Source: Termitinemataceae bacterium
GTDB taxonomy: Bacteria; Spirochaetota; Spirochaetia; Treponematales; Breznakiellaceae
Length of the DNA: 62,247 nucleotides
Reading direction: 5' to 3'
Assembly: GCA_036245275.1 (NCBI GenBank)
Contig: BTID01000001.1
Location: 1 to 62,247, forward strand
How positions within the stretch are numbered: position 1 is the first letter of the stretch; every line of letters begins with the position of its first letter. The notes beneath the pieces are model-generated. The model saw only the letters and a program-made list of their open reading frames with translations. It was not told the origin of the DNA and searched no databases. Made by a program: the position numbers and the translations under genes. Shown here one piece after another: positions 43,400-54,413 of this stretch.

Positions 43400-44665
43400 A
43401 TGACATTTAGTGCTGACTTTCGGTCGCAAAATTTGCAAAAATCTGCCGTGCATCCATGCTTTAACTCGTGCGGTGGTAAAAATGCTCGTATTCACTTGCC
43501 TGTGGCAGAAAATTGCAATATTCAGTGTAATTATTGCCGCCGCAAGTTTAGTTGTGTAAATGAAAGCCGCCCGGGTGTTACTTCTGCCGTGCTGACTCCG
43601 CACGAGGCGCAGGAACGTTGCCTAAAAGCACTGGAAAAGATTGAAAACCTAAGTGTTGTCGGTATCGCAGGGCCGGGTGATGCTCTTGCTTGCCCTGATA
43701 ACACTTTTGAAACGTTGCGTCTTGTGCGCGATGTGTGGAAGGAGGCAATTTTTTGCCTTTCAACGAACGGTCTTTTGCTGCCGGAATATGCGGATTCCCT
43801 TGCAGAATGTGGTGTTTCTCATATTACCGTTACAATAAATTCGCTAAAACCTGAAACAGCTAGGAAAATTTACCGCTATGCAGACTATCATGGTAGGCGT
43901 TTGACTGGTAGAGCGGCATCAGATCAGCTTATAGAGAACCAAATTGAGGGTCTTAGGCGAGCTTCGGCACTCGGAATTGTTTGTAAAGTGAATACAGTGT
44001 TCATAAATGGCCTAAATGACAGCGAAATTCCGCAAATTGCAGCCGCCGTTAAGGATGCCGGAGCAGATTTAATGAATATTATGCAGCTTATTCCTGTTCC
44101 GCACACTCTTTTTGAAGATATTCCCCTTGTCCGCAACGAATATATAAACGAAATGCGCACTAAATGTGAATCTATCCTGCCTCAGATGCGTCATTGCAAG
44201 CAGTGCCGCGCAGATGCTGTAGGAACACTGGATAATGATTTGTCGTTGGAGTTTACTGAATGTTTTACGGAAAAAACCAAAAGTTTGGCGGCAAAGGACG
44301 CAAGCGGCACGAACAAAAATAGCGGGCAAGTGCTTGTTTTTGCGGTTGCCAGCAAGAATGGAGTGCTTGTCGATGAGCATTTTGGGCATATAAGTGAGTT
44401 TTTGATATATGAATGGTGTAACGGCGGCATCCTGTTTAAGGAAAAGCGGCCTGTCAGTCAATTTTGCGGCGGAGGAAATTGCAGTGCGCATGAACGTTTG
44501 CCGCAAATTTATGATGTTTTAAAGGATTGTGCGGCAATTTTGGTGCTGCGCATTGGCGAAGTTCCACGTGCTTTTTTAGCCGAACGCGGAATTAAGGTTA
44601 TTATGACTTACGACTATGTGGAAACGGCGGTAAAAGAAGCGGCTGAAAATTTGATTAACAGATGA
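43400..44665 (+). CDS. NifB-like radical SAM protein with C-terminal NifX/NafY-like domain
   Basis: HPCFNSCGGKNARIHLPVAENCNIQCNYCRRKFSCVNESRPGV matches the NifB signature (HPC..., CxxxCxxC, NESRPGV). The C-terminal VFAVASKNGVLVDEHFGHISEFLIYE is a NifX-like domain. Confidence 0.85.
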   Translation: MTFSADFRSQNLQKSAVHPCFNSCGGKNARIHLPVAENCNIQCNYCRRKFSCVNESRPGVTSAVLTPHEAQERCLKALEKIENLSVVGIAGPGDALACPDNTFETLRLVRDVWKEAIFCLSTNGLLLPEYADSLAECGVSHITVTINSLKPETARKIYRYADYHGRRLTGRAASDQLIENQIEGLRRASALGIVCKVNTVFINGLNDSEIPQIAAAVKDAGADLMNIMQLIPVPHTLFEDIPLVRNEYINEMRTKCESILPQMRHCKQCRADAVGTLDNDLSLEFTECFTEKTKSLAAKDASGTNKNSGQVLVFAVASKNGVLVDEHFGHISEFLIYEWCNGGILFKEKRPVSQFCGGGNCSAHERLPQIYDVLKDCAAILVLRIGEVPRAFLAERGIKVIMTYDYVETAVKEAAENLINR

Positions 44666-44740
44666 AAAGGATTTTTTACGATACTAATTCCTAGTATTTT
44701 GATATGTTTTCTATGATTTTTATTTATATAGGAGTGTTTT

Positions 44741-45808
44741 ATGAAAAAAATTGGAAAAATTGTGCTTGCAGCGGTTTTATTCGGCATAGCGGCACTTGGC
44801 GGCTGCCAGAAAAAGGATGCGGCAAAGGCGGGTTTGGAAAAGATCAATATCATCTCGAATCCTGATTTGACTACCAGTCCGCTGTCGATTATTGCACGGG
44901 AGCGGGGGTATTTTACAGAGGAAGGGCTGGAACCCAACTTTATTTTTCTGCGTGACGGCCGCACAGAGGCGCTCAGTATGGGAAAGGGCGATCTTTACCT
45001 TACAGAGCTTATTCCGCCTCTTGTTTATGCTTCGCAGGGTGCGCCTATAAAAATTATAGGCGGTACGCTCTCCGGCGGTAACTATGTTATTGTAAAAAAA
45101 GAAAACGAGGAAAAATACAGTAAAATAGAAAACTGGAAGGGCGCAAAACTTGGAACGGTCAGGCTTTCTACTTCGGAAATGGTATCCCGTTATGCGCTAA
45201 GTCAAGCAGGAATTACAGACGATGTGCATTTTCAGGAAATCGACAATTACCCAAACATAATAGAGGCTGTGCGCAAAGGTCAAGTTGATATTGGCTTTAT
45301 TGCAGGCGGTCCGTTCCGATCAAGTGCTTTGGATTTGGGACTTTCAATTTTGTTTCCTATGAATGAGATGTCGCCTAACTATTTATGCTGCCGCTTGAAT
45401 GTCTATGCTCCGTCTTTGGAATCGCGGAGAGGAATTTTTGTAAACTTTATTGTTGCCTACCTACGGGCATACCGCGACTTTAATGATCCTGCGCAGCGCA
45501 ACGATATTACAAAAATATTTGCAGACATTACATCACAGAGTGAAGAATTTATTACAGAAACTGTTTTTGATTCAGAGCGCAATGGTCAGCGTTCCTACAA
45601 TCCTGATCCGGATTTACGACGCATCATCAATGTTTGGGACACTCTGGAATCTACTGAATATATACATCCAGATGGTATTGATGTCCGCAGTGTAGTTGAT
45701 ACTTCTGTGTATAAAGAAGCTTTGGACATTATAATCAAACGTTACCCTGACGATCAATTGTTTAGGGAGTTATCTGCATATTACGCAGAAAATGATTTAG
45801 ATGTTTAG
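44741..45808 (+). CDS. ABC transporter substrate-binding lipoprotein, NMT1/SsuA/TauA-like (sulfonate/taurine/nitrate family)
   Basis: SD AGGAG and lipobox LGGC. The size and sequence pattern fit the NitT/TauT-family SBP, and it is adjacent to the cognate ATPase and permease. Confidence 0.75.
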   Translation: MKKIGKIVLAAVLFGIAALGGCQKKDAAKAGLEKINIISNPDLTTSPLSIIARERGYFTEEGLEPNFIFLRDGRTEALSMGKGDLYLTELIPPLVYASQGAPIKIIGGTLSGGNYVIVKKENEEKYSKIENWKGAKLGTVRLSTSEMVSRYALSQAGITDDVHFQEIDNYPNIIEAVRKGQVDIGFIAGGPFRSSALDLGLSILFPMNEMSPNYLCCRLNVYAPSLESRRGIFVNFIVAYLRAYRDFNDPAQRNDITKIFADITSQSEEFITETVFDSERNGQRSYNPDPDLRRIINVWDTLESTEYIHPDGIDVRSVVDTSVYKEALDIIIKRYPDDQLFRELSAYYAENDLDV

Positions 45809-45826
45809 AACAAAATAGGTAAAAAA

Positions 45827-52225: not shown

Positions 52226-53538
52226 TGGCAAAAACACTTGTACAGTCACGTTATAAATGCGCGCTTGCCGCAATGCAAACCGTACACGCAATACCTCGTG
52301 CAATTCCAATTTTACATTCAGGTCCCGGATGCTCTGCAAAATTAAATGACAATAACGGAACATCGGGAATGTATTCACAAAATATTTTTCCATGCACAAG
52401 TGTAAGTGAAAAAGAAGTTGTATTTGGAGGCACAGATAAATTACGCAGCACTATAGAAAACTCAATAAAAATAATTGATGCTGATCTTTTTGTAGTCCTT
52501 ACCGGATGTACACAGGAATTAATTGGTGATGATGTAGGCGAGGTTGTTAGCGAATTTGAAGACGCAGAAAAACCTGTAATATTTGCCAACACACCGGGAT
52601 TTAAAGGCAATAACTATGTTGGGCACGATTGGATAATGAAGGCAATTTTTGAACAATACTTAACACGTTATTCATGCGGCAGCAGTGTAAAACAAAAAGG
52701 TCTTGTAAATCTTTTTGTCTCTCCGCCTATGCAAGATCCGTTTTGGCTTGGTAACTTGCGCGAACTTGAATCTTTAATATCAGAACTGGGACTTACAGTA
52801 AATACAATTTTTGGACACGGACGCGGATTAGAAAACATCAACAAAATTCCGCAAGCAGAACTTAACATTGCAGTAACACCTTGGGCAGGATTAGAGAGCC
52901 TCAAATATGTAAGCGATAAATATAAAACGCCATTATTGCATTATCCGGTACTGCCGATAGGCGCTTTTGAAACAAGCAAATTTTTACGTGCAGTAGCCCA
53001 TGCAGCGCATGTTCAAAATGATATTACAGATCGTGTTGTCAATAGCAAAGAAGAAGAATACTATTATTACGTCGAACGTTATTCCGATATTTTTTTAGAG
53101 CAGCGCATTATGTCAAAACGATTTGTTTTAGTATGCGATGCACAGTATACATTGGCACTTACAAAATTTCTGGTAAACGATTTAGGTATGTTTCCTGAAA
53201 TAGAATTTATCACAGACGATACACCTCAAAAATATCGCGCCGCAATAGAGGGCGAAATGCACAATCTTAATTACGGCATAAAAGCAGATATTGAATTTTC
53301 TGTAGACGGCGCACACATTGCAAATAGAATTCGTTCAATAGATTTTAGCGGCAATCCTTTAATCATTGGTTCAAGTTGGGAGCGGCAAATAGCGCAAGAA
53401 GTAAACGGCATCTTTGTAAATGTGTCATATCCAATGGTAGATAGAATGGTTATAAACAGCCGCATTGCCGGTTACGGCGGCGGATTAAAATTATTAGAAG
53501 ACATGTACAGCGAAGCACGCTTTAGATTAGCGTTGTAA
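52225..53538 (+). CDS. Nitrogenase component-1 beta-like protein (NifK/NifN-like)
   Basis: TAATG overlap with the alpha-like gene. [14 protein letters not shown] and [12 protein letters not shown] blocks are present. Confidence 0.8.
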
Positions 53539-53567
53539 AAAATTCACAAAGTAAAGAAGGAATAAAA

Positions 53568-54413
53568 ATGGCAATACGGCAAGTAGCAATTTACGGGAAA
53601 GGCGGAATAGGAAAATCTACCACCACACAAAACTTAACAGCAGGACTTGCAGAGGGCGGCAAAAAAGTTTTAGTTGTAGGCTGCGATCCAAAAGCAGATT
53701 CAACACGGCTATTACTTGGAGGCCTACATCAAAAAACAGTGCTTGATACAATACGCGACGGCAAACAAGAACCATCATTAGAAGATCTGGTAAAAGTCGG
53801 CTTTAAAGACATACGCTGCGTAGAATCCGGCGGACCGGAACCCGGTGTCGGCTGCGCAGGACGAGGCATCATTACATCAATAGATATGTTGGAACACTTA
53901 GGTGCATACACAGAAGATTTAGATTATGTTTTTTATGACGTACTAGGTGATGTAGTCTGCGGCGGATTCGCTATGCCCATACGCGAAGGAAAAGCAAAAG
54001 AAATCTATATAGTAGCAAGCGGCGAAATGATGGCATTGTATGCTGCAAACAACATCTGCAAAGGTATAAAAAAATATGCATCAAAAGGGGAGGTGCGATT
54101 AGGCGGCATAATCTGCAACAGCCGCAATGTTGATAACGAACTGGATCTGCTGCGCGCATTCTCGGCAGAGCTTGGCAGTCAACTTTTATACTTTATACCG
54201 CGTAACAACATAGTTCAACATGCAGAGCTAAACCGCAAAACTGTAATCGAATACAAAGGAGATTGCGGACAAGCTGACGAATACCGCTTGCTTGCAAAAA
54301 CTATGGACAGCAACACAAATTTTACGATCCCCACACCTGTAGAAGCCGAGCGTCTGGAAGAACTTATGCTTCAATATGGAATGATGGATGTGCCGGGTAA
54401 TTACAAAATCTAA
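53568..54413 (+). CDS. NifH-like Fe protein (nitrogenase reductase family ATPase)
   Basis: [15 protein letters not shown] (P-loop), [27 protein letters not shown] and [17 protein letters not shown] (the two [4Fe-4S] Cys). Confidence 0.9.

Follow-up and report, generated by a model that had tools for sequence, protein, structure and literature searches.

The stretch of DNA considered here, called the window throughout, covers positions 1 to 62,247 of contig BTID01000001.1 (GenBank assembly GCA_036245275.1; 62,247 nucleotides) from a Termitinemataceae bacterium, a termite-gut spirochaete. It carries a nine-gene operon that joins a nitrogenase look-alike with an ATP-binding cassette (ABC) importer, a dehydrogenase–aminotransferase fusion enzyme and the cysteine synthase CysK (Table 1). 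We believe that this operon may serve the anaerobic harvesting of sulfur from an organic sulfur compound, working in the manner of methylthio-alkane reductase (Mar) or of Isr, and we put the probability of this reading at about one half. It draws on the kinship of the D and K subunits with MarD and MarK, on the sulfur genes that surround related loci in several phyla and on the recurring association of the fusion enzyme with the importer. In this sense, the operon points to an uncharacterised, oxygen-free route of sulfur harvesting in a termite-gut spirochaete.

The operon and its nitrogenase-like reductase

The operon consists of nine plus-strand open reading frames (ORFs; positions 43400–54413) whose junctions, from gene 1 to gene 9, measure +75, +18, −4, +39, +11, −10, −1 and +29 nt, the −1 junction being a TAATG through which the K gene is translationally coupled to D. 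An original prediction, made from the letters of the DNA, had described nine same-strand genes with junctions of −10 to +75 nt, their order, their families and a set of sequence motifs ([54 protein letters not shown]); the ORF coordinates, the Pfam and NCBIfam scans and the translations agree with it on each of these points. The first gene encodes a NifB-type maturase in which a Radical_SAM domain (residues 35–214) is followed by a C-terminal Nitro_FeMo-Co domain (residues 323–414), and its translation contains HPCF, CNIQCNYC, NESRPGV, AGPGD, TVTINS and CKQCRADA. This protein is the presumed builder of an [Fe8S9C] (L-type) cluster. In related loci, NifB as a rule measures about 293 aa, and the NifX-like part (about 133 aa) is encoded by a gene of its own behind it; in the window the two are fused.

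The ATPase and permease of the importer are nearest to the nitrate/taurine (NitT/TauT) types, the best NCBIfam models being the nitrate, SaoA, taurine and 2-aminoethylphosphonate transporter ATPases for the former and NtrB, SaoP, TauC and SsuC for the latter, all below cutoff. Their binding protein also matches Pfam NMT1_2 and Phosphonate-bd and reaches 45 bits, below cutoff, with the NCBIfam model SsuA_fam; a search of solved structures for its ligand returned one weak, irrelevant match and no informative relative. The last gene, H, encodes an Fe protein with the P-loop GKGGIGKS and both cluster cysteines.

Table 1. Genes of the operon and other features of the window, with positions, strand and supporting matches
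Feature	Position	Strand	Match or remark
NifB-type radical SAM maturase::NifX-like cofactor-carrier domain, 421 aa	43400–44665	+	TIGR01290, 392.7 bits (cutoff 343.65)
Lipoprotein substrate-binding protein, TauT/SsuA (NMT1) ABC importer	44741–45808	+	NMT1, 1.6e-13; LGGC lipobox
ABC importer ATPase	45827–46627	+	Pfam ABC_tran, 6.9e-33
ABC importer permease	46624–47568	+	Pfam BPD_transp_1; 4-nt overlap with the ATPase gene
Cysteine synthase A (O-acetylserine sulfhydrylase, CysK)	47608–48534	+	TIGR01139, 396.3 bits (cutoff 350.95)
Fe-ADH (N-terminal)::HisC-like aminotransferase (C-terminal) fusion, 734 aa	48546–50750	+	Pfam, NCBIfam
D subunit (alpha-like), nitrogenase-like reductase	50741–52225	+	Oxidored_nitro; MarD (9fmg_A), 292.8 bits, E 3.5e-86
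K subunit (beta-like), nitrogenase-like reductase	52225–53538	+	Oxidored_nitro; MarK (9d9u_C), 350.3 bits, E 1.6e-103
H subunit, ATP-dependent Fe protein, canonical NifH type	53568–54413	+	TIGR01287, 448.7 bits (cutoff 394.35)
Rrf2-family regulator, first of tandem pair	19786–20217	−	
Rrf2-family regulator, second of tandem pair	20214–20807	−	
63-nt direct repeat, first copy	41986–42048		contains the stop codon of the U32-peptidase gene
AT-rich segment between the repeats, 1.24 kb	42049–43290		small minus-strand ORFs
Largest ORF of the segment, 148 aa	42317–42763		no Pfam match
63-nt direct repeat, second copy	43291–43353		ends 46 nt before the nifB-like start
tRNA-Phe (GAA)	54546–54618		132 nt after the H gene
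Single-domain response regulator	54764–55228		
Hybrid histidine kinase	55253–57865		receiver and Hpt domains
Pyruvate kinase	58030–59841	−	
Rfam Flavo-1 RNA motif	59910–59986	−	45.8 bits (gathering score 42)

Among all solved structures, the best matches to D and K are the subunits of the Rhodospirillum rubrum methylthio-alkane reductase (9FMG/9D9U; scores in Table 1), and the best true nitrogenase subunits reach only about 113 and 85 bits. The NifD model TIGR01282 gives 126.5 bits with D (cutoff 653.55) and the NifK model TIGR01286 gives 110 bits with K (cutoff 427.3); every NifD and NifE model of NCBIfam scores far under its cutoff with the window D. When the ligand residues of Mar are taken from the structural paper (PMC12552129), the P-cluster cysteines C50, C75 and C141 of D align with C66, C91 and C158 of MarD, and C12, C36 and C95 of K with C32, C56 and C121 of MarK. 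At the cofactor, C253 of D aligns with C270 of MarD, and the Arg-His of an SRHPG motif with R428-H429, a pair on the Mar-specific Loop I that has been proposed as a hallmark setting Mar apart from nitrogenases (PMC12552129). Both the C270 equivalent and the Arg-His pair are kept throughout the clade to which the window D belongs, and the positions of NifD Gln191 and His195 are occupied by Trp and Phe, as in Mar. Since the first gene is a NifB equivalog and NifEN is missing, we predict that the enzyme, like Mar, carries a P-cluster together with an [Fe8S9C]-type cluster derived from NifB.

These comparisons support the assignment of D, K and H to a predicted Group IV nitrogenase-like system rather than to a nitrogenase. 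This had been proposed from the outset, and it is upheld both by MarDK as the closest solved structure, next to the low NifD scores, and by the ligand alignment, in which the metal ligands of Mar are kept and NifD Gln191 and His195 are replaced. A true nitrogenase was considered as a candidate and rejected: D and K fall far below the cutoffs, catalytic residues have been exchanged and no NifEN was found among the window ORFs scanned.

The placement of D within Group IV was approached by an exhaustive search of 1.8 billion representative proteins, which returned 1103 relatives, 117 of them below E 1e-30. A total of 106 full-length sequences were aligned, and a neighbour-joining tree was computed for 51 of the representative sequences (477 columns, 100 bootstraps). 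The window D falls into a clade with 100% support, nested in one with 98% support, and its companions there, from Treponema primitia, Syntrophobotulus glycolicus, Clostridium, Lachnospiraceae and Sodalis, are 64–85% identical to it. The 98% clade is sister (61% support) to a clade with R. rubrum MarD and a representative designated P0143. The window D shares 33% identity with the former and 34% with the latter, and these two are 43% identical to each other. A phylogeny against reference groups had been named as a check in the original prediction; in this tree D stands in a separate clade, and by its matches H is of the true-NifH type. The cysteines of P0143 (49, 52, 59, 77, 80, 145, 256) repeat the pattern of Endomicrobium proavitum NfaD (50, 53, 60, 78, 81, 146, 257) shifted by one residue, and we take P0143 to be of the Nfa type, an identification made by fingerprint and not by name; the extra cysteines of NfaD are absent from the window D. 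Identity to the window D is about 27% for representatives with the Isr pattern, which have Asp, Ser or Asn at position 66, mostly Pro at 158 and nothing equivalent to Cys270. Membership in Isr was considered and rejected, as neither the ligand pattern nor the type of maturase fits.

The lining of the active site likewise sets the clade apart. At MarD positions 70, 74, 194, 195, 196, 199, 374, 375, 428 and 429, the window clade reads C Q I/V W A F W H R H, Mar reads M Q H W S F F H R H and the Nfa-type representative reads Q M V W T F F H R H. R. rubrum Mar and R. palustris Mar1 and Mar2 have H194, W195, S196, F199, F374 and H375 in common. Of these residues, the window D keeps W195, F199 and H375 and carries Ile for H194, Ala for S196 and Trp for F374; apart from the alternation of Ile and Val at 194, these replacements are invariant across the clade. 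His194 and Ser196 are common to all three Mar enzymes with demonstrated activity. The lining further differs in Cys73, which is Gly, and in Met70, which is Cys, and the position of Tyr98 is variable. By sequence, D and K are placed in a separate clade with its own active-site signature, neither strictly Mar nor strictly Isr. The earlier proposal of a methylthio-alkyl- or isethionate-type enzyme therefore survives in part: the metal ligands of Mar are kept, but the clade is separate and its lining different, so that neither name applies in the strict sense. Because the ligand set of Mar is combined here with a different lining, the clade could show how the protein shell tunes the reductions carried out by [Fe8S9C] cofactors.

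Sulfur genes around related loci

When one genome per prokaryotic species was scanned, 232 stretches with a relative of D were found, and the best 80 were kept. Their D proteins are 61–74% identical to that of the window, and they come from termite and rumen Treponema, Spirochaetaceae, Clostridia, Lachnospiraceae, Oscillospiraceae, Fibrobacter and one Anaeroplasmataceae genome. Neighbourhoods were described by simple ORF calling, clustering and annotation of recurrent clusters; several of the metagenomic contigs are short, and the counts that follow refer to the 63 loci at least 10 kb long and to up to 10 kb on each side of D. CysK-family genes are present in 32 of the 63 loci, where chance would, on a rough estimate, account for about 2% per locus. 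TauT/SsuA-type importer genes occur in 29, a cystine-type amino-acid importer in 22 (nine of these also with an M20 amidohydrolase), the C–S lyase PatB in 18, a CymR-like Rrf2 regulator in 11 and MetB/C-family genes in nine, and 56 of the 63 loci have at least one gene from this set. No recurring PII-like cluster was found across the 80 loci, and the only recurring nitrogenase-family genes are D/K-like pairs, none of them nifEN-like. The sulfur context first read from the window alone holds across these 80 loci and several phyla.

The arrangement of the genes varies among the hosts. K precedes D in the rumen Treponema and Fibrobacter loci, where a CysK-family paralogue with a score under the CysK cutoff generally follows close downstream; in most Treponema loci it comes immediately after D. 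Many of these loci have a second, distant D/K pair beside the first, often with an importer of its own; the K–D order together with second pairs is seen in L033, L036, L041, L055–L057, L062, L069, L076, L077 and others. The additional pairs are distant paralogues, 26–40% identical to the window proteins (51% and 55% in L038), and in rumen Treponema and Fibrobacter several nitrogenase-like paralogues seem to be arranged as one sulfur island. Four clostridial loci (L019, L023, L028 and L029) have a different extension: downstream of D, K and separate aminotransferase and dehydrogenase genes they carry genes for a corrinoid protein and an MtaA-like methyltransferase, as well as an amidohydrolase, an alpha/beta hydrolase and small conserved ORFs, and they match the 'type 1 MGC' methyl-sulfur/selenium clusters of PMC10418091.

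With the clade and its surroundings in hand, we can weigh another assignment, a true methylthio-alkane reductase serving methionine salvage or the use of volatile organic sulfur. In such a system the dehydrogenase half of the fusion would reduce 2-(methylthio)acetaldehyde to 2-(methylthio)ethanol, D/K/H would convert this to methanethiol and ethylene (or form methane from dimethyl sulfide), and the thiol would be taken up by CysK or another sulfhydrylase. An alcohol dehydrogenase that makes the Mar substrate does have a counterpart in the anaerobic dihydroxyacetone phosphate (DHAP)–ethylene shunt, reportedly described by North et al. in 2017 and 2020. MarDK is the closest solved relative, with its ligands conserved, the corrinoid and MtaA-like methyltransferase genes of the clostridial loci are linked to methyl-sulfur metabolism, and a 2026 review expects functional Mar in Clostridia and Fibrobacter. 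Nonetheless, we regard the assignment as unlikely. MarD and the window D are only about 33% identical, and the latter sits in a sister clade (98% and 100% bootstrap) that has Ile and Ala where Mar has its conserved His194 and Ser196. The partners that recur around it are of the CysK, PatB and MetB/C types; the O-acetylhomoserine sulfhydrylase, the enzyme that takes up methanethiol, is not among them. For membrane-permeant volatiles, moreover, an ABC importer with its binding protein would be odd, and the aminotransferase half of the fusion would be left without a role.

The weakest of the rival explanations is a nitrogenase: an alternative enzyme of the Nfa kind (Group IV-A), acting on N2 or on another nitrogen substrate, with sulfur genes beside it by accident. 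Termite guts are nitrogen-poor. Both H and NifB pass their equivalog cutoffs, and H is 73% identical to the genuine NifH of Clostridium pasteurianum (1cp2, 432.9 bits), R. rubrum MarH giving 282 bits. Moreover, Syntrophobotulus glycolicus, whose D is 67% identical to that of the window, stands under 'Nfa' in Morimoto's supplementary table, and a 2023 preprint labels such clostridial genes 'group IV-A' (PMC10418091); the published group labels for the clade are inconsistent. The sequences themselves speak otherwise. The window D is no more than 34% identical to P0143, which bears the NfaD fingerprint and groups with Mar; the K motifs ([20 protein letters not shown]) are of the Anaeroarcus / C. 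algoriphilum type, unlike the Endomicrobium/Leadbettera type (RFMCAI, GPGCGTM); and the Trp and Phe at the positions of NifD Gln191 and His195 count against a nitrogenase as well. Purified Mar, with the same ligand set, does not reduce N2, and a review doubts that N2 fixation is the primary role even of Nfa. With no PII, nifA, nifEN or nifV found in the window or recurring in the 80 loci, and sulfur genes in 56 of 63, we consider a nitrogen-reducing function highly improbable.

The importer–CysK–fusion cassette and a candidate pathway

The fusion gene starts with a GTG at 48546, preceded at a distance of four bases by AGGAGG (48536–48541), and the gene call in the protein database yields the same 734-aa product. 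Pfam finds Fe-ADH at residues 13–158 and Aminotran_1_2 at residues 404–727; among NCBIfam models, glycerol dehydrogenase gives 220 bits (cutoff 336) and hisC 317 bits (cutoff 276.55), and among solved structures those of HisC and GldA match best. Fused proteins are rare: about 11 protein clusters contain both domains, mostly from spirochaete and termite-gut samples. It belongs to a five-gene cassette (binding protein, ATPase, permease, CysK, fusion) that is conserved as a unit and is also present in L003. In the spirochaete loci L081–L085 and L089, CysK lies between the importer and the fusion, with a 4-nt overlap of the CysK and fusion genes in L081–L085. In L081, NifB::NifX precedes the cassette and an amino-acid importer follows it; in L082, L083 and L089, D and K (plus H in L089) come directly after it, and there, as in the window, the fusion gene abuts or overlaps D. 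Parts of the window's gene order, whose co-occurrence in other genomes had been suggested earlier as a check, are seen in these spirochaetes.

The clostridial loci L012, L013, L018, L019, L023, L028, L029 and L063 have the dehydrogenase and the aminotransferase as separate adjacent genes beside D/K, in either order and with the same family profiles as the halves of the fusion; the fusion thus records a functional link that exists in two phyla. Because the aminotransferase half is fused to a dehydrogenase and embedded in clusters of nitrogenase-like and importer genes in both, we argue that it is probably a recruited paralogue. Among the ten loci with dehydrogenase or aminotransferase genes, TauT-type importer genes are present in seven, and CysK-family genes occur within 10 kb in only two. 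That the fusion acts on an imported compound, as the original prediction had supposed, fits these data: the dehydrogenase and aminotransferase travel with D/K, and a taurine-type importer is their most constant neighbour.

Two more distant fusions extend this pattern. In L087, a fusion 39% identical to that of the window stands beside a TauT-type importer on a 6.5-kb contig with neither D/K nor CysK. L086 (285–6318) has a tight operon that ends with a fusion 48% identical to that of the window; its preceding genes are those for a close homologue of PDB 6ENO/7YYL (271 bits), for an ATPase of the BcrAD/BadFG type, for a GST-like protein and for an acetyltransferase. We take 6ENO to be a double-cubane cluster protein, an ATP-driven low-potential reductase; its archive label reads only 'dehydratase family protein'. 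In L086, an unrelated ATP-driven reductase may stand in place of the nitrogenase-like one. Together, these contexts favour the processing of an imported compound for an ATP-driven reductase.

They also bear on a second function for the fusion, namely that it supplies the three-carbon acceptor for CysK, for example by a serine/phosphoserine-type route that starts from a hydroxy- or oxo-acid, or disposes of the desulfurised carbon skeleton. CysK and the fusion are adjacent genes, overlapping by 4 nt in L081–L085, enzymes of the HisC type handle phosphate-ester oxo and amino compounds, and the window contains no cysE. Yet eight of the ten dehydrogenase/aminotransferase loci have no CysK-family gene within 10 kb, against seven with a TauT-type importer, the distant fusion of L087 keeps the importer and not CysK, and that of L086 is found with a different ATP-driven reductase and no CysK, all of which argues against a carbon acceptor for CysK and makes this explanation improbable.

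The reductase might, on the other hand, act under sulfur limitation on something other than a C–S bond, reducing for instance sulfite, thiosulfate or polysulfide to sulfide, or a selenium or phosphonate compound, the cassette being an independent module that shares its regulation and location. The cassette and D/K are indeed separable (L084, L085 and L087), many D/K loci have neither dehydrogenase nor aminotransferase, and CysK needs sulfide, yet the operon contains no sulfite reductase. Nitrogenase-family cofactors reduce many small molecules, according to a review, and the binding protein touches the phosphonate-binding family, as the ATPase does the 2-aminoethylphosphonate models. Weighing more heavily, in our view, is that among characterised enzymes only Mar and Isr, both C–S cleavers, and Nfa carry this ligand set or belong to neighbouring clades. 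D/K are usually preceded directly by cystine-type or TauT importers, often with an M20 amidohydrolase, and importers for organic compounds in this position indicate an organic substrate; the fusion, for its part, abuts or overlaps D in L082, L083, L089 and the window. We therefore see little likelihood that the substrate lacks a C–S bond.

Returning to the harvesting of organic sulfur, the general route can be laid out step by step. The lipoprotein-anchored TauT/SsuA-type ABC system would import an organosulfur compound. The aminotransferase half of the fusion would convert an amine to a carbonyl, and the dehydrogenase half the carbonyl to an alcohol, next to the sulfur-bearing carbon (the reverse is also possible), giving a hydroxy-alkyl sulfur compound like the substrates of Mar (2-methylthioethanol) or Isr (isethionate). 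The H dimer would then spend ATP to send low-potential electrons to a D2K2 core, where they would pass via the P-cluster to a carbide-containing [Fe8S9C] cluster, made by NifB::NifX without NifEN, for a reductive cut of the C–S bond. Finally, CysK would join the released sulfide (or thiol) to O-acetylserine to form cysteine. The individual steps have precedents. Mar converts 2-methylthioethanol to methanethiol, ethylene and water; R. palustris Mar2 prefers functionalised substrates, for example 2-methylthioethanol and ethanedithiol, and the Mar homologues of R. palustris lie among sulfur genes and are induced under sulfur limitation. Isr is proposed to cleave isethionate. In Bilophila, taurine is converted to isethionate by an aminotransferase and a sulfoacetaldehyde reductase before the C–S bond is cleaved.

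Speculative candidate substrates are taurine, processed to isethionate, cysteamine, processed to 2-mercaptoethanol, C3 amino- and hydroxy-sulfonates such as cysteinolate and 2,3-dihydroxypropane-1-sulfonate (DHPS), and S-alkyl-cysteine derivatives. Amino- and hydroxy-sulfonates or small amino-thiols are plausible because the dehydrogenase is GldA-like, the aminotransferase HisC-like and the importer of the sulfonate/taurine family. Cleavage of a sulfonate would yield sulfite and so call for a sulfite reductase encoded elsewhere. The idea that the known anaerobic cysteinolate pathway employs HisC- or GldA-like enzymes was rejected, since it uses a DegT-family racemase and HpsN of the histidinol-dehydrogenase family. 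HpsN is a histidine-pathway enzyme recruited to C3 sulfonates, and it serves here as an analogy only. As the importer, the two-step enzyme, the reductase with its maturase and the sulfur-consuming enzyme are all in one operon, the list of substrates to be tested is short.

Several observations weigh against the harvesting of organic sulfur as the function of the operon. The presence of CysK beside D/K may mirror only a shared sulfur-starvation regulon. At the same time, a search by E-value detected no sulfur-responsive riboswitch or T-box upstream of the operon or in 15 related loci, and no sulfur-responsive operator was found. No sulfite reductase is encoded in the window, which counts if a sulfonate is the compound cleaved. 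The lining of the active site is unlike that of Mar, and the chemistry could therefore differ, and the Fe protein is of the true-NifH type. As for the fusion, its aminotransferase half passes the HisC equivalog cutoff, and its dehydrogenase half is assigned by sequence to the glycerol-dehydrogenase subfamily, whose known substrates are sulfur-free. In L084 and L085, an unrelated small ORF follows the cassette before the contig ends, so that the cassette and D/K can be separated.

A further step would be to regard the clade as a class of reductase with a new function, set apart from Mar, Isr and Nfa, that acts on a non-volatile, imported substrate prepared by the fusion and passes sulfide to CysK, and to count a share of the termite and rumen 'nif' genes as genes of sulfur scavenging. 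This is possible, but we offer it tentatively, as a view with somewhat more against it than for it.

Window surroundings, nifH surveys and known systems

The remainder of the window is given to housekeeping genes, among them gyrB, SMC, exonuclease VII, an AddAB-like helicase-nuclease, ClpP and pyruvate kinase. Its GyrB is 86–89% identical to that of metagenome genomes of Termitinemataceae and Spirochaetaceae and 82% identical to that of Treponema primitia, which marks the source as a termite-gut member of the Treponematales. In agreement with the original prediction, a Pfam scan of 36 other window ORFs, which include most of the ones with 120 aa or more, gave no match to nifE, nifN, nifV, nifQ, PII or molybdate transport genes, and nifA and cysE were not found in the window either. 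The neighbours of the operon are genes for a U32 peptidase, a carbamoyltransferase, tRNA-Phe, a response regulator and a hybrid kinase. Just upstream, the two copies of a direct repeat, 97% identical and 1305 nt apart, bracket an AT-rich segment that looks like a small insertion with target duplication; without this segment, the operon would start about 65 nt past the peptidase gene. A scan for promoters and terminators gave matches no more numerous than in shuffled sequence.

The tandem Rrf2-family regulators lie 23 kb from the operon, one of them matching the CymR model best, though with 115 bits it stays under the cutoff (195), and the second matching IscR best. Because CymR-like genes stand directly beside D/K in 11 related loci, this pair is a candidate for the regulation of the operon. 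The Flavo-1 RNA motif sits in the 5' leader of the pyruvate kinase gene; the motif is described in Flavobacteria, its match in a spirochaete is unexpected, and it could be due to chance.

The Fe protein has a bearing beyond this genome. Among the Fe proteins linked to the clade in 39 loci, those of 32 loci, from Treponema, Fibrobacter and Clostridia (for example L027, 9402–10253, and L036, 6552–7397), are 71–81% identical to C. pasteurianum NifH, and those of the other seven are about 50% identical to it. The nifH gene of the window is probably not a marker of nitrogen fixation, and that it would be scored as genuine nifH is a practical warning for surveys. In the rumen, nifHDK transcripts of Fibrobacter and Clostridium have been read as nitrogenase expression (PMC5787071); the Fibrobacter D/K genes that we recovered fall in the sulfur-linked clade of the window. 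With Fe proteins so close to NifH, a share of the 'nifH', 'nifD' and 'nifK' genes of termite and rumen samples would, if the clade is such a new class, serve sulfur scavenging and not N2 fixation.

Some of this ground is already known. Group IV enzymes that cleave C–S bonds for sulfur assimilation (Mar, Isr) and a general link with sulfur genes have been described, Group IV D/K beside cysteine synthase in termite-gut spirochaetes has been published (PMC13067680), and the same goes for clostridial Mar-like genes that have sulfur genes, aminotransferases and corrinoid methyltransferases nearby (PMC10418091). A 2026 review calls the association of Group IV with sulfur genes 'tantalizing' but uninformative on substrates, and it names functions for the uncharacterised Group IV clades as the greatest challenge, one with which gene context has so far been of little help (PMC13474568). 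A search of the full-text literature returned no description of the importer–CysK–fusion cassette or of the fusion enzyme, no functional study of the clade and no mention that its Fe protein is of the NifH type. The earlier claim that the arrangement is not described can thus be kept for the cassette and the fusion, but not for the links of D/K with CysK and other sulfur genes. The clade itself spans more than 80 species of gut and sediment anaerobes.

Regardless of the substrate, the operon can be set beside five known systems. With molybdenum nitrogenase (NifHDK, with NifB/NifEN) it shares an Fe protein and a NifB at equivalog level, the P-cluster cysteines and the Cys275 equivalent. It differs from that enzyme in the D/K scores (126 against 653 and 110 against 427 bits), in the replacement by Trp/Phe of Gln191/His195, which in nitrogenase are catalytic together with Val70, in a His ligand on a Mar-type loop, where nitrogenase has His442 on a loop of its own, and in the lack of NifEN, NifV and PII in the window. 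Nfa (NfaBHDK, Group IV-A) of E. proavitum, implicated in N2 fixation, likewise comes from the termite gut, has B, H, D and K without NifEN and shows the same P-cluster and Cys/His ligand set. However, NfaH is reported to share 41% identity with A. vinelandii NifH, in contrast to the NifH-type window H, and Nfa is ammonium-repressed, whereas the window clade is embedded in sulfur genes; a PII gene of E. proavitum is described only as present in the genome, so that finding none in a 62-kb window says little.

A closer parallel to the fusion is offered by Tpa, SarD and IslAB of Bilophila wadsworthia. SarD is a metal-dependent dehydrogenase of the Fe-ADH family. There, an aminotransferase likewise yields an aldehyde, a dehydrogenase reduces it to the alcohol, and an oxygen-sensitive enzyme cuts the C–S bond of the hydroxy-sulfonate. 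Yet Tpa is a class III aminotransferase, whereas the window has a HisC-like one fused to a dehydrogenase of the glycerol-dehydrogenase subfamily, and Bilophila uses a glycyl-radical lyase for respiration where the window would use a nitrogenase-like reductase for assimilation.

Isr (IsrBHDK, Group IV-F) of Rhodobacter capsulatus is akin to the window in anaerobic sulfur assimilation and in SsuA/TauT-type ABC import; its own context includes taurine, cysE and cysK genes, and its own substrate is a 2-hydroxy-alkyl sulfur compound. The enzymes themselves differ, since of the P-cluster cysteines IsrD retains just the equivalent of Cys88 (Cys62 is replaced by Arg, Cys154 by Pro or Ser) and lacks equivalents of Cys275 and His442, whereas the window D has all ligands, and IsrB is a BciD-like radical SAM protein, whereas the window has a NifB equivalog. 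Finally, Mar (MarBHDK, Group IV-C) of R. rubrum differs from the window in its Fe protein (the window H gives 433 bits with clostridial NifH and 282 with MarH), in a MarB without the NifX-like domain, in its partner metY where the window has the ABC importer, CysK and the fusion, and in the gene order B-H-D-K where the window has B...D-K-H. Both, nonetheless, have an H dimer, a D2K2 core and a NifB-type maturase without NifEN, and both stand in a context of sulfur assimilation. They share, as well, the six P-cluster cysteines, the Cys270 equivalent, Arg428-His429, Trp195, Phe199 and His375.

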